Notes: generated by a model from the letters alone, not told the origin. A stretch of DNA of 63,548 nt, filler included, from Licmophora abbreviata (GCA_900291995.1; 13 parts of 13 records of this genome joined end to end with filler, not necessarily neighbours in it), one strand, 5' to 3'; positions 55,085 through 61,088 are shown, counted from the first letter of the whole stretch. Numbers and translations are program-made.

Positions 55085-55476
55085 CCCACTAAAATGTGCC
55101 CTGAAGTTGTNNNNNNNNNNNNNNNNNNNNNNNNNNNNNNNNNNNNNNNNNNNNTTAATTAATTAANNNNNNNNNNNNNNNNNNNNNNNNNNNNNNNNNN
55201 NNNNNNNNNNATTATCTAGACTGCTGGTTCTCTTGAGCGCACGGTATCTGTAGCCATCAAAGAAAGACCGGTCTCCTGCTGGTAAAGATAGGTCGCATGT
55301 ACCAGGTACCGAGTAAAACAGCAATAACTTTTGGTTTGATTCATTGCTATTCGTACGTCGCGAACACCTGCTGATTCAAACACTTTTTTGCGGCACTCTT
55401 GTGACATTCCTTCGTTGACGATGATTCACAATTTCTCACACTATCGCATGCGCTCACAAACGCAGCATACGCGACC

Positions 55477-57341
55477 ATGGCGACGACTTCCTCTCTCCCC
55501 GTCGTACCTGGCCTCTCCAAGGAACGCCTGGATGAAGTAGTGGCATCGATCAAGACTGCCCTTTGCGATGCAGAGCTGAGATCATTGTCGCAGCGCGCTG
55601 TACAAAGCAAAGTTTGGCACCTCGAGCCGTCATTGGCCTCGTGTATGGCCGATCTTCGTACCCAAGAGAATGCAGTCAGGGATGAAATCCTCCGTCGAAC
55701 CAGTGAATTGGTCTACAAGTTCCACGATCACACTCTGGAAACGACCCTTGCTCGAGCCGGAATCTTGGAGGACGAGCGGATTCACGCGGGCTCCTCGTTG
55801 CATCAGAAAGGCGACTTTGATTTGTTCTGTCTGGACGCCAAGGAGCGTCTTTACCTCATTCTCAAGCACTACGGCTGGATTCAAGACTTCTTTCGCAATT
55901 TTCCTGTCCACTTCTACGAAAACAGTTTTCAGTTTGTCGACAGAATTCCGTCTAAGAAGCTCAACGTGAAGGTCAAGGTGGTCGGCCTCGGCATTGGTGG
56001 AAGCATGGCTGTGAGCGGCCTAGCTCGTGCGGGCATCGATTCGGTAGTCGGCTACGAAAAGCGAGATGAACATGGTCCTCGCCGAGTCGGTAGCCGCTAC
56101 CAGAACGCTTCCTGGCGTGCCTATGACATTGCCGGGCGGCTCTTGGACGAGGAGGCCTACGAGACCCTCACGACATACCGCCAGCGCCTCAATGTCACCT
56201 ACGATGATGGCACTTCCAAGGTAGAAACGTCCGACCGTGTCCAGATTATCCTTGGTAATGCGATAGAGGCGGCACTTGCGTCGGCCAAGCGCTACGGAGC
56301 CGAGCTGGTGTTCAGTAGCGATCTGGAATCATACTACAGGGAGGACGGCGTCCAAGATCCATGCGATATCGTAGCCTTGTTTTCTGGCGCCCACACTTCT
56401 AAACTCTTCCCTGGACTCGAGAAGGAAATGGAAGTTTGCTCCTGGCCTGAAGTTAGCTCCAGCTGCAAGATGTGGCTTCGTGTAAAGGACAGCGAGCGCA
56501 ATGAAGACTACTGTGCTCGCGGAGGCGAGATTGGTGCAGAGAATTGGCATTATACTATCGAGAGTTCGCGTCGGACCAAGGAGGACGTTCTTCGCGTCCG
56601 CGACAACATTGAAAGCCAGTACAACTATGCAGTCAAGAAGTCGCCAGGGGAAGAGGAGAAGCTCAAGGTCAAGTACGACTCGCAATTTGCGCAGATCGAC
56701 AACGTGATCCAAAGTTTTGAAGACAAGGAGAATAGCGACGGCGTAGCTCGCTTTGATTACGTGAGTGTGTTGGTTTGCAGTCCTACTATGCTCGATTTGC
56801 GTGTGCTCCTGTATTCATCTTTTCACTGATGCGCTTGTATATTCCAGATCTTTACGAACGCGCCTGACAATGAGCACAACCGAGCCAAACGCGAATCGAG
56901 CCGTAAAGACGGAACTGTCGTTCTCGAAGGAGGCTATGATGTGGACGTCAAGTTTGCGTCAAAGTGCGCGTTCGGCGGCCCGAATGCGAGCCCCGCCATC
57001 GGACAGCTTCTCGACAGGTTTTCGACCAACCTCATCGTGACTGGAGGTGATGCCTGCGTGCCTCCGAACCCACTTGCGGCATACGGAGCAACTCTTGCCT
57101 GCGAGTCCGCTGACATGGTCGTTCATCTGGCCATTGCATACGGGCACTTGAACACCATCGTCCATGACATGGAGGCTTACTCCAAGGAGGGCGATGTCGA
57201 CCCCGAATGGATTGAAGAGGTCAACGCGCTTAAGAATTGTATGCCATGTTCTACGAGACTCGCAGCCGCTCTGAAAACTACTTTCAGTGGGTGCAGACTT
57301 TGATTTGTAACCTCTACTCTCTTCCTCCAATGACCGCATAA
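55477..57341 (+). CDS. FAD-dependent monooxygenase-like protein; intron 56761-56847; apparent frameshift near 57233
   Basis: Dinucleotide-binding VKVVGLGIGG...LARAG...GYEKR and a C-terminal GGDA...PNPLAAYGATLA (GD motif of flavin hydroxylases). The shifted frame gives ELYAMFY...PPMTA*. Confidence 0.65.
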
Positions 57342-57428: not shown

Positions 57429-59285
57429 TTACGAAGTGTACCGCCAAGGGTCTTCCCAATCTTTGCCGAGAAGCATGGCAAGTCGATGGTTGTGAGGTTC
57501 GTAGAAGCGCTGAAGGTACTGCAGAGTGGCTTCTTCCATCGGTTTATAGGAGCGCCGATTTCTGACCGAGTCATCCTCGACATCATACGGTGGCAACTCT
57601 AGGTGTTGCCATACCTTGTCCATCGTTGTTCGCACTCCATCTTCGCTCTGCATGTCCTCCAACTTAAGCACCATCAGATGCTCACGAGAGAATGCATCAA
57701 ACCATGGGCGCAAGTTTAATTCGTACATGCCGCGGGAGATTGGGCTGTGTGAGCCTGTGTACAAGGGTAGATCCTTCAAGTATACGTTCCATGCTTGATT
57801 CTCGTCATGGCTTCCAACGAAGGAATCAAAGGTCGCCTGGTCAACAGTGCCATCGTCAATGTTCCAATATGGAATTAAACCACAGGACCGCAGTCGCTCC
57901 ATGTCCTGCCGGACCACTTGCTCGAGCGTTAACTCTTTCCATTCTGTGCCTCGAGTTTGAATCTGCTGTGGTGTTCCATCCAGCGATGTCACCATGGCAA
58001 AATGAGAATGCACACGCTTGACAGGATCCCGCAAGATGACAAACAGTTTGAGCGGCCAATCAAACACTCGCTTCAGTCGGGGAATGACGCGCAACGAGTC
58101 GAGCAGGTAGGACGGAGTCGAGTCACCCGTCAAGCAGGATGGGTGGCGACTCAGCTCTTCCGTGAAAAAGAACATGCGGCAAAAGGCGCGTTGTTTCTTG
58201 GTCGATGTCAATGTATCATTCCATCGCCAGTCCAAACAGTGCGTTTCCCGTCGTCGTGCCCTCACTACCAGCGGATGCTGTATCATGTACTCGTAAAGAG
58301 ATGTCGTTCCTGACTTTTGGGCTCCCAAAATCAGATAAGACGGTGTCGGTCGACGTCCCTTGTCCACAACACGATCGATACTACGTCGCGTTTGCAACAG
58401 CTGCTCACCCGGGTTCAACTGGATGCGCCGCTGTATCGTAAAGTGTTTGTCCACGTAATCCAAAATCAAGTGTACACGATGGTCATCCCCACAGTTGGAA
58501 ACCGCGTGCTTGCCTTGATTGTTAATTTCAAATACATGTCCTGGTGAACAATCAACGCGTTGCATTGCCTCGACAGTAGGGCCGCAGCGAAACAGTACTT
58601 TGGAGGGATCCGTAACAATCACTGGCACATGGACGCGATGCGTGTGTTTGACCCACTCGCCTGTATCATGATGCACTGGAATGGTGACAGCAGGCGGAAG
58701 CGCCGCCAGGAGCAGTCGCACGATTCTATCGGAAGAGATGGCAAGTTTATCCAGAATTGGCTGTACCGCAGCGCGTACATCACTCCGGCCATGCCACCAC
58801 GGAAGTTCGTAGACATCCCTTAGAAAGTCGTCGCAGAAGAGCAAAACAATCTTCTTGATTCCCCAAGCATCGTGAGACGGCCGTGTTATTCGTACATTGT
58901 TCTGCGTCGCATTTGCTTCGTCCCAGAGGTTCGTCAAGGACTCAATGGGCGACACCTTGTCAGGTAGGTTGCACGAGGGAGAAGCCGTTCTAAGGACAGC
59001 CGTATTCGGTGCCTCTTCGTTGTACCCTTCCCGGACCAAACTTTCCAAGGCCGAGACATCGACATTTCCTCTCGAAGAGACGCAAACCAGAAGTTTGTAT
59101 CCAAAAGAATCGTCCTTCTTTTCTTCCCCATTCGTCTCACTTCTTGTCCCGATCGGATGCTGCTTGCTTGACAATGGAATTTCGCCATGGTTCACCGAGT
59201 CGGCACACGACAAGCTATGCAGATTTATCAATTCCAGCGCATCCTTGTGCTGTCGAGCGATCTCATCGGGCGGGGTCGGGGACAT
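57429..59285 (-). CDS. Fusion of an Asp/Asn beta-hydroxylase-type 2OG-Fe(II) oxygenase domain and a PAPS-dependent sulfotransferase domain
   Basis: IPVHHDTG, HRVHVP, FEINNQGKHAVSN...RVHLILD, then LILGAQKSGTTSL (5'-PSB), TPSY, ILRDPVKRVHS (3'-PB), SRGMY, LQRFYEPHN. One uninterrupted ORF. Confidence 0.88.
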   Translation of the reverse strand: MSPTPPDEIARQHKDALELINLHSLSCADSVNHGEIPLSSKQHPIGTRSETNGEEKKDDSFGYKLLVCVSSRGNVDVSALESLVREGYNEEAPNTAVLRTASPSCNLPDKVSPIESLTNLWDEANATQNNVRITRPSHDAWGIKKIVLLFCDDFLRDVYELPWWHGRSDVRAAVQPILDKLAISSDRIVRLLLAALPPAVTIPVHHDTGEWVKHTHRVHVPVIVTDPSKVLFRCGPTVEAMQRVDCSPGHVFEINNQGKHAVSNCGDDHRVHLILDYVDKHFTIQRRIQLNPGEQLLQTRRSIDRVVDKGRRPTPSYLILGAQKSGTTSLYEYMIQHPLVVRARRRETHCLDWRWNDTLTSTKKQRAFCRMFFFTEELSRHPSCLTGDSTPSYLLDSLRVIPRLKRVFDWPLKLFVILRDPVKRVHSHFAMVTSLDGTPQQIQTRGTEWKELTLEQVVRQDMERLRSCGLIPYWNIDDGTVDQATFDSFVGSHDENQAWNVYLKDLPLYTGSHSPISRGMYELNLRPWFDAFSREHLMVLKLEDMQSEDGVRTTMDKVWQHLELPPYDVEDDSVRNRRSYKPMEEATLQYLQRFYEPHNHRLAMLLGKDWEDPWRYTS

Positions 59286-59731
59286 GGCGGTCTTTCGTTC
59301 TCTGTTAGATACGCTGTGACCTCTCGCCATCTACCGTCATGTTATCATGTTGTGTGTCTCGACGGCCGTGACGGTGATTCAGATTTTGAAATCTAAACTT
59401 GAGAGTTGAGTGGCCGAGATGAGTTCTTGGAAGCGAGTGGGTGGGTGTACAGACGATCCCATTTGTCGTCCGCAAAAGATCCGCGCGCGTCTTTTGGACA
59501 TCGAAATCTGCGTAGAACTCAGTACAAACCCTACGCATGATCGCCAAAGTCTTACAAATGCGGAGTTTTCCCACGGTTCACATTTTCTTTCTAGCGGAGT
59601 ATTTTGGTTGTTGTTGTTGTTGTTGTGTCCATCCATCCTTAGAGCTGTGGACGACAACGATCTTGCAAAGACGCACCCCCTGTAAAGTCGACTGAGCAAC
59701 AGACGCTACACTCCCTTCGACAGGAAACGCC

Positions 59732-60522
59732 ATGGTTCGAATGGTGCAGCACGACCATGATCTCGTAGAACAGAACATCGAAGACGATGATATCTTGCAT
59801 GATGTAGCATCGGACGATGACGATGAACCTGTCGCTATCCATGCAGGAGCAGGAGGAGGAGATGTCCACATGGAAGACGACGATTTTCCCATGGGTGACG
59901 CGGATGCACCCGCTCAGAATGGTGATCGTGATAGAAACGGTGGTGGATCGCGAAGTCGGGATGAACAGAGACGGATGGAAGACGAACCGCCTCTGGAAGG
60001 ATACCAAAGGTGAGTAGAGTGCATTCTGCGCCTTTGTAGGATCAACGGTAGGTCCATCTGCGACTGGCACACGCTTTCTCATACGCGCCTACTATAGAAC
60101 GGCACTCATTGGACAGGGCGCCTATGGTATTGTCTACAAGGGCACCAAGCAGACCACGGGAGACGTCGTGGCGATCAAGCGGATTCCCTTTGCCGACAGC
60201 ACCCCCGAGGGAGGCGTTCCTTGTAATGTTATTCGTGAAGTCTCCTTGTTGAGGGAGCTTGATCATCCTAACGTTGTTAGGCTCTTGGATATCATTCAAG
60301 CACAACCGAATGGACTCTATCTTGTGTTTGAGTATGTTACGCATGACTTGAAAACATTTATGGACCAGAGCCAAACGTCGGATGATATCAGTGAGCGTGT
60401 TGGGCTGCCGGTGGCAACAGTGCGCTCGTTTATGCGCCAAATGATAAGCGGAGTAGGTTTCTGCCACACGTATCGAGTGTTGCATCGCGACTTGAAACCT
60501 CACAATGTACGTGCCGATTGCG

Positions 60523-60559
<37 letters not shown>

Positions 60560-61088
60560 GAGCGTGTCGTCTCAACCTTACCTTTTCAACACATTTCCAC
60601 AGCTCCTCATCAGTGGCGACGGGCGTCAGCTGAAGTTGGCAGATTTCGGACTTGCGCGGCTTTCGGCCATCCCGAATGGTCCCTACACCTATGAGGTTGT
60701 GACGCTGTGGTACCGTGCCCCCGAACTCTTACTCGGCGCTAGTCGGTACTCCACGTCGGTCGACACGTGGTCGGTTGGATGCATCTTTGCGGAAATGGCT
60801 ACGGGTATGCCTCTCTTCCCAGGACGCTCCGACATTGACCAGCTCTTCAAGATCTTTCAGCGCCGCGGAACCCCCACAGGAGAAATGTGGCCAGCCGTGC
60901 CGCGGCTTCCGCATTACAATCCTGAATTTCCGCAGTGGCGAGAAAGGCCCATTACGGACTTTGTTCCGCAGGCAAACTTGGGGTCAGCGAATGGGGCCGA
61001 CCTCCTGACCAAATTGCTCCAGTACGATCCAGATCGTCGAATTGCCTGTCGGGCGGCATTGCAGCATCCCTATTTTTTGGAGCACTAG
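59732..61088 (+). CDS. Cyclin-dependent kinase (CDK1/2-like) with PCNVIRE helix and acidic N-terminal extension; introns 60010-60097 and 60507-60602
   Basis: IGQGAYGIVYK, VAIK, EGGVPCNVIREVSLLREL, HRDLKPHN-LLI, LADFGLAR, YTYEVVTLWYRAPELLLG. Confidence 0.92.
60523..60555. repeat. (GT)n microsatellite inside CDK intron 2
   Basis: GTGTATGTGTGT...GTG run of about 16 units. Confidence 0.95.

Follow-up and report, generated by a model that had tools for sequence, protein, structure and literature searches.

The fusion gene and its neighbors

The window, that is, the whole stretch of DNA that was analyzed, comprises 63,548 nucleotides of Licmophora abbreviata (GCA_900291995.1) in 13 parts joined end to end with filler; the source genome is eukaryotic, gene-dense and 29 Mb in size. 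An earlier note, made from the sequence alone, had read a single intronless open reading frame near one end of the window as an oxygenase followed by a sulfotransferase. Translation of positions 57429-59285 (minus strand) yielded 618 aa free of internal stops, and Pfam and fold comparisons agreed with both domain assignments. According to the alignment, the Met at 59285 is the start used by fusion orthologues; the frame stays open for 15 codons upstream, to an alternative ATG at 59330. The closest labelled matches were all from diatoms (53-58% identity), and the top identity to any match was 65%.

The Pfam scores of both domains barely exceed the cut-offs (Asp_Arg_Hydrox, PF05118, aa 178-278, 26.2 bits versus 22.6; Sulfotransfer_1, aa 317-587, 23.9 bits versus 22), and no NCBIfam family matched the protein. 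The AlphaFold model (pLDDT 87.6, pTM 0.84) matched 3-OST-3 with Z 21.6 (rmsd 2.5, 226 residues aligned) and human AspH (5apa) with Z 13.0 (rmsd 3.1, 158 aligned). Because these fold matches agree, the two assignments are firm despite the marginal Pfam scores. The pTM across both domains suggests that they pack against each other in a defined way in the model.

The features are as follows. Conservation is given for 195 distinct fusions, which are the 200 full fusions of the family census (see below) after duplicates and extra copies of the own and bacterial loci were taken out; some are near-identical and thus not independent.

55405..57303 (+): two-exon gene, tail-to-tail with the fusion gene; a Rossmann-like GxGxxG is seen by eye, possible flavoprotein
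57429..59285 (-): hydroxylase-sulfotransferase fusion (P0001), single-exon ORF, 618 aa, colinear with its orthologues over the full length
58935..59285 (-): N-terminal region, aa 1-117; conserved blocks EEIxRQH, GEIPL and SRGxVD alternate with variable inserts; no hydrophobic targeting stretch
58443..58934 (-): AspH-family (PF05118) Fe(II)/2OG dioxygenase core, aa 118-281, by Pfam and fold
58665..58673 (-): H205-x-D207 iron ligands, each residue in 195/195
58629..58637 (-): R217-x-H219 (R-x-H motif), R217 in 195/195, H219 in 194/195
58476..58508 (-): H260 (third iron ligand) to R270 (2OG C5-carboxylate Arg, in RVHL), 194/195 each
58353..58442 (-): linker, aa 282-311, with conserved Q298-T-R300-R301 (Q, first R and second R in 179, 189 and 188 of 195); insertion site in another subfamily
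57450..58352 (-): PAPS-dependent sulfotransferase of the HS 3-O/N-sulfotransferase structural class, aa 312-612, by Pfam, fold and motifs
58299..58325 (-): 5'-phosphosulfate-binding (5'-PSB) loop GAQKSGTTS; K324 corresponds to 3-OST-3 Lys162, T328 stands in place of Arg166
58230..58247 (-): E347-x-H349-x-x-D352, corresponding to the 3-OST-3 catalytic base Glu184, His186 and Asp189; 194, 193 and 195 of 195
58005..58031 (-): 3'-phosphate-binding (3'-PB) motif R419...S427, 193/195 each
57552..57560 (-): N576-x-R578, a short loop where 3-OST has a longer, Cys-containing one with Lys368/Arg370; 185 and 189 of 195; 24-residue deletion relative to 3-OST-3
59708..61088 (+): gene for a CDK-like kinase, oriented divergently from the fusion gene

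The H-x-D...H triad, the arginine of RVHL and both PAPS motifs thus lie where the earlier note had seen them. The first exon of the possible flavoprotein gene had no Pfam family near the cut-off. Across 16 fusion loci, many of them short, the sole shared neighbor was the CDK, at locus L034; the L034 kinase is 76% identical to the one in the window, and it is upstream and divergent there too. Of three sequencing runs, one, possibly DNA, gave 4 short contigs, none spanning the domain junction; 5/6 differences in the sulfotransferase part were synonymous, a number too thin to count.

The oxygenase core is the most conserved part of the fusion, with 69% mean identity to the 120 top hits, and the N-terminal region partly packs into its fold, as structural matches to 2OG oxygenases begin at residues 22-37. 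H205, D207, H260 and R270 are all kept in 194/195 distinct fusions. With AspH, the proline cis-4- and 3-hydroxylases and the enzyme of entry 7v4f, the fusion has in common the fold (Z 12.3-13 for this group, Z 12-14 when AspH, proline 3-hydroxylase and related oxygenases are taken together), the R-x-H motif (found in proline cis-4-hydroxylase and the 7v4f beta-hydroxylase, and equivalent by motif to AspH Arg688/His690) and the spacing of 10 between H260 and R270, which equals that of AspH His725/Arg735. By profile (four bacterial rows included), the nearest solved oxygenases are proline cis-4-hydroxylase (E 3e-8) and 7v4f (5e-8), with AspH at 0.036. R190, which is invariant, is aligned to an Arg in the 7v4f enzyme. 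Together with R135, H138, D139, D152, D153 and W211, it belongs to a set of family-specific, near-invariant residues that, as judged from the sequence, probably line the substrate site.

The differences from AspH are substantial. AspH has only two His at its iron site, whereas the fusion has the full triad; the fusion lacks the TPR domain and the ER anchor of AspH, and the Pfam scan of the fusion found no TPR family. AspH binds its cosubstrate through Arg735 and His690 and the substrate carboxylate through Arg688 and Lys666, and its TPR domain is described as required for protein hydroxylation (PMC6817910). At the Lys666 position the fusion apparently has L192, by spacing only; this position, 13 before the first His, is hydrophobic in the fusion, but basic in AspH, the proline hydroxylases and 7v4f. 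RPxHD and FCDD motifs further set the fusion family apart from these PF05118 enzymes. The absence of a TPR domain and the apparent Leu at the Lys666 position indicate that the fusion oxygenase is not AspH, and that its target need not be Asp.

The earlier note had described the second half as being in the style of heparan sulfate 3-O/N-sulfotransferases. This holds for the fold and the PAPS motifs, but not for the sugar-binding residues and the membrane anchor, which are lost. The structural match to 3-O- and N-sulfotransferases of heparan sulfate is strong (Z 20-21.6), compared with Z 12-13 for TPST and curacin-type enzymes and about 10-11 for cytosolic SULTs. Like the 3-OSTs, NDST1 and bacterial 3rnl, the fusion has both PAPS motifs and equivalents of Glu184, His186 and Asp189; K324, E347, R419 and S427 are all kept in 193/195 distinct fusions. 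Among nine 3-OST-3 residues listed as important in PMC8341778, the four linked to chemistry are kept (Lys162 as K324, Glu184 as E347, His186 as H349, Asp189 as D352), whereas three sugar-binding residues are replaced (Arg166 by T328, Lys215 by S389, Gln255 by the near-invariant M431), and R578 may stand in for one basic residue. Retention of the chemistry residues and change of the heparan-binding ones imply that the domain should O-sulfate a hydroxyl, but not that of heparan sulfate.

In contrast to the 3-OSTs and NDST1, the fusion carries an oxygenase and no membrane anchor. As the earlier note had said, a signal peptide is not evident: the best 17-residue hydropathy score in the first 50 residues was 0.61 in a hydropathy scan (1.5 or more counting as hydrophobic), which is not a trained predictor. 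By the same measure, 1/194 fusions has a hydrophobic N-terminus, versus 6/9 stand-alone sulfotransferases of the own genome, and peroxisomal or ER-retention tails were found in 0/195 fusions. Since the fusion has lost both the membrane anchor and the heparan-binding residues of its Golgi-type paralogues, we predict that it is a cytosolic protein and not a heparan enzyme.

Conservation and spread of the family

Family profiles were run over 442 proteins and the ORFs of 108 loci. This census returned 200 full fusions, along with 83 sequences that had the oxygenase only and 76 that had the sulfotransferase only. The oxygenase precedes the sulfotransferase in all 200 full fusions, and both catalytic sets are intact in 192/195 distinct ones, so that the catalytic residues noted in the window are clearly conserved among orthologues. 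The other three have one dead active site each (P0151 in the oxygenase, P0191 and P0202 in the sulfotransferase). Many of the 83 oxygenase-only sequences look like exon or contig fragments; of 14 short ones that were read, several stop at the same point or enter intron-like sequence.

Five diatom transcripts marked as complete (P0023, P0045, P0088, P0113 and P0115) hold both domains, so that a single-transcript arrangement is seen in other diatoms. Four of them begin at the conserved N-terminal block, and P0113 aligns from just behind it. According to source labels, the diatom fusions come from Epithemia, Cylindrotheca (P0061 and P0070), Ditylum, Nitzschia (P0081 of N. inconspicua) and Mayamaea, and further fusions from Phytophthora, two pelagophytes, Saprolegnia and the thraustochytrid Hondaea. 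Partial sequences of the family were present in one chrysophyte and two brown algae. The fusion therefore spans photosynthetic and heterotrophic stramenopiles, a range that leaves out two relatives labelled dinoflagellate and chytrid, which are possible contamination.

The linker exceeds 90 residues in 33/195 fusions. A helical-insert profile, built from these long-linker members themselves, matches 32/33 of them and 0/162 short-linker members, the own gene among the latter. Pfam PAH_ZNF598 matched the insert above the cut-off in 2/22 proteins scanned, and below it in 3 more. The insert was modelled on P0243, a fragment whose sequence begins with the insert. For the insert part of this model, the listed matches consisted solely of four harmonin-homology domains, those of CCM2 (Z 8.8, rmsd 2.7, 81 aligned), RTEL1 (8.1), whirlin (7.7) and harmonin (7.5); a Z near 8 is modest for a helical bundle and can reflect a common arrangement. 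Sequence and fold signals agree in pointing to a harmonin-homology/PAH-like domain placed between both enzymes. Harmonin-homology domains are protein-binding modules. Members of the long-linker subfamily include P0148-P0182, P0243 and the thraustochytrid P0448.

Other domain combinations were seen in single records, possibly merged gene models: the family sulfotransferase with a lysine-methyltransferase domain (P0180) or with WD40 repeats (P0269), and a TBCC domain ahead of the complete fusion (P0146).

Bacterial and viral copies and the origin of the fusion

One full fusion (L011:8001-9662) lies on a 1.95-Mb bacterial contig, in a locus of 73% GC. Its start overlaps the stop of the preceding birA-like gene, and the surroundings by eye are valS, nadC and birA. 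A pattern scan of 185,579 species genomes for close relatives gave this bacterial copy as the single relative. In 351 genomes of the bacterium's phylum, only L011 itself was found and no close relative among the other 350; the same search returned 6 genomes with distant PF05118-like matches (E 1e-6 to 1e-9). Plasmid and phage collections gave one weak oxygenase match each.

Another full fusion (L022:4824-6440) is located on a viral contig 85 kb long and with 25% GC, where genes for an A22-like resolvase and DUF5767 lie next to it; from these neighbors we infer a giant virus. PF05118 is known from giant viruses, in an account whose PF05118 passages make no mention of a sulfotransferase (PMC10598087). 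Both copies are intronless single ORFs with intact catalytic motifs. The fused gene, kept whole, has passed to one bacterial chromosome and to one giant-virus contig.

A quick unrooted tree of 93 domains placed every one of the 50 fusion sulfotransferase domains in a single branch (59 rows, SH-aLRT 83), separate from 7 paralogues of the own genome and 21 bacterial or viral stand-alone sulfotransferases. Nine sulfotransferases without oxygenase, some of them fragments, nest in this branch. The viral copy pairs with the eukaryote-like P0136 (SH-aLRT 95-99), and the bacterial copy falls among short-linker members with no firm placement. The oxygenase tree is likewise a quick one, with very long bacterial branches. 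The simplest history, its order presumed from the unrooted tree, is that a Golgi-type sulfotransferase lost its anchor and was then fused to the oxygenase.

Bacterial clusters of PF05118 and sulfotransferase are common (93-618 members). The bacterial PF05118 fusion L018 aligns with the family over the oxygenase only; the family sulfotransferase profile does not match it, and it matches curacin-type and not 3-OST structures (E 0.043). From this sample of one, the eukaryotic fusion looks independent of the bacterial fusions.

Predicted function and its alternatives

The fusion would act in two steps. Fe(IV)-oxo hydroxylation and PAPS-dependent O-sulfation are the established chemistry of the respective families. 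The N-terminal Fe(II)/2OG domain would hydroxylate an unactivated carbon in this way, and the C-terminal domain would O-sulfate a hydroxyl using PAPS, with E347 as base; intact sites are observed for both, and the activities are predicted from them. Both domains would act sequentially on one target, with the sulfate placed on the new hydroxyl. As the most speculative step, the target may be a conserved cytosolic protein that is modified on a side chain, and the outcome would then be a hydroxy-then-sulfate protein modification.

That the same hydroxyl is made and then sulfated, with protein and small-molecule targets taken together, appears probable to us. It is favored by the fixed domain order (200/200) and the intact catalytic sets (192/195), and also by the single fusion branch, the anchor-less N-termini, the transfer of the gene as a whole and the pTM of 0.84. 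Counting against coupling, the domains can part, as in P0151, P0191 and P0202 and in the 9 nested sulfotransferases without oxygenase, and perhaps in some of the 83 oxygenase-only sequences. Both domains might instead be active on a shared target or complex with uncoupled chemistry, the sulfate going to a pre-existing hydroxyl (of Ser/Thr/Tyr or a cytosolic glycan sugar) and the oxygenase modifying another position or sensing oxygen or iron for the sulfotransferase. Descent of the sulfotransferase from a carbohydrate-sulfating class would fit this, as would the 3/195 members with one dead domain and the joining of the sulfotransferase branch to methyltransferase (P0180) and WD40 (P0269), if these single records are not gene-model joins. 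Yet site loss is rare at the same 3/195, domain order is invariant and the linker QTRR is conserved, and an acidic glycan is a poor fit as acceptor, since four of the positions or loops that bind heparan are changed; we consider uncoupled chemistry unlikely. An artefact, be it read-through of two genes, a luminal heparan-type enzyme with a missed signal exon or a domain serving as scaffold only, could account for Pfam scores so close to the cut-offs and for one relative automatically named heparan sulfate 3-O-sulfotransferase 4. This explanation is largely refuted by the one open frame, the five complete-marked diatom transcripts with both domains, the single-ORF bacterial and viral copies and the near-invariance of catalytic residues in both halves, and we give it hardly any weight.

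Within the coupled reading, a protein is the likelier target than a small molecule, and an ancient cytosolic stramenopile enzyme that hydroxylates and then O-sulfates a protein is the interpretation that we tentatively put forward. A protein target is favored by the harmonin-homology insert in 32/33 long-linker members, by the open-cleft 3-OST fold, which takes polymers, and by a single own-genome copy (the oxygenase query gave one match) that is kept in photosynthetic and non-photosynthetic lineages and is part of no gene cluster. Precedents, namely the Skp1 fusions (PMC8724618) and a published prediction of hydroxylation followed by sulfation on proteins (PMC2938197), favor it as well. Against a protein, the insert is absent from the own gene and from 162/162 short-linker members, and the solved oxygenases nearest by profile act on small molecules, being hydroxylases of free proline and of a nucleoside pathway. 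The same coupled chemistry could thus be directed at a small cytosolic molecule, such as an amino acid, a metabolite resembling a nucleotide or a sugar, or the head or chain of a lipid, the sulfate ester serving as osmolyte, signal or activated leaving group. The alignment of R190 with the 7v4f Arg agrees with this, and the short form carries no docking domain, in particular not the TPR domain that AspH needs for protein substrates (PMC6817910); diatoms, moreover, are described as producing sulfated small molecules, sterol sulfates (PMC5670183). However, small-molecule sulfotransferases are distant in fold (SULTs at Z about 10-11, curacin-type at Z 13) in comparison with the polymer-acting class (Z 20-21), the diatom, bacterial and viral loci have no biosynthetic neighbors, and a harmonin-homology insert would be odd in a metabolite enzyme. 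We therefore regard a small-molecule target as rather unlikely. A sterol sulfotransferase role was set aside, the candidate of PMC5670183 being described as SULT-like.

The idea of hydroxylation followed by sulfation, which the earlier note had offered for the polypeptide in the window, is not new. Eukaryotic protein sulfation is known as Golgi chemistry. Iyer et al. (2010, PMC2938197) proposed, as a prediction only, that collagen-like or tail-collar proteins are first hydroxylated and then sulfated by bacterial pairs of a beta-hydroxylase and a linked sulfotransferase; these pairs combine a 2OG hydroxylase with a sulfotransferase, as the diatom fusion does. The fusions that the same source describes in Monosiga and stramenopiles are extracellular and of the JmjC/FIH1 type, whereas the diatom fusion is of the PF05118 type and predicted to be cytosolic. 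No collagen-like or tail-collar gene was found near L011 (3 neighbors scanned) or near the diatom gene, and eukaryotic genes need not cluster. What stands of the idea is that both sites are intact in one polypeptide. The proposed design, a 2OG hydroxylase fused to an anchor-less Golgi-type transferase, parallels the Skp1 pathway of protists, its best-characterised analogue, in which cytosolic Golgi-related transferases, often fused in pairs, decorate hydroxyproline, and for which a dual prolyl 4-hydroxylase/GlcNAc-transferase of a plant pathogen is cited (PMC8724618, its reference 121). In both cases a hydroxyl would be made in the cytosol and then decorated; the Skp1 enzymes unite a PHD-type hydroxylase with a glycosyltransferase, and the likeness is an analogy of design, with no homology claimed.

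A full-text literature search, with most subscription papers outside its coverage, found no study of the fusion family, in line with the earlier note, which knew of no characterised algal enzyme of this kind; the architecture is, however, not specific to algae, as it also occurs in oomycetes, a thraustochytrid, one bacterium and one giant virus, and some database names already spell out a hydroxylase-sulfotransferase. We conclude that the fusion is a real and well-conserved bifunctional enzyme that is apparently unstudied. In its most specific and more doubtful form, our proposal would make it the cytosolic writer of an undescribed modification, an O-sulfated hydroxylated residue (+96 Da) whose formation needs O2, iron, 2-oxoglutarate and PAPS; the writer would have been assembled from a Golgi-type sulfotransferase after loss of its anchor, in an event separate from that of the bacterial pairs, and a giant virus would have captured it as a whole. 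If true, a cytosolic enzyme that makes and then sulfates a hydroxyl would represent either a novel modification or a novel metabolite route, found in a group to which oomycetes and major primary producers of the ocean belong, and would tie together oxygen, iron and sulfate status. Since it is one soluble protein, apparently single-copy in the own genome, and occurs in diatoms that can be cultured, the 2010 prediction can be put to a direct test with it.

When the own genome was searched with the longer fusion query, 13 further matches were obtained, all in the sulfotransferase half or its linker. At least nine stand-alone sulfotransferases of the 3-OST class are present in this genome (L002-L010), most of them N-terminally anchored, and these are candidates for diatom polysaccharide sulfation.
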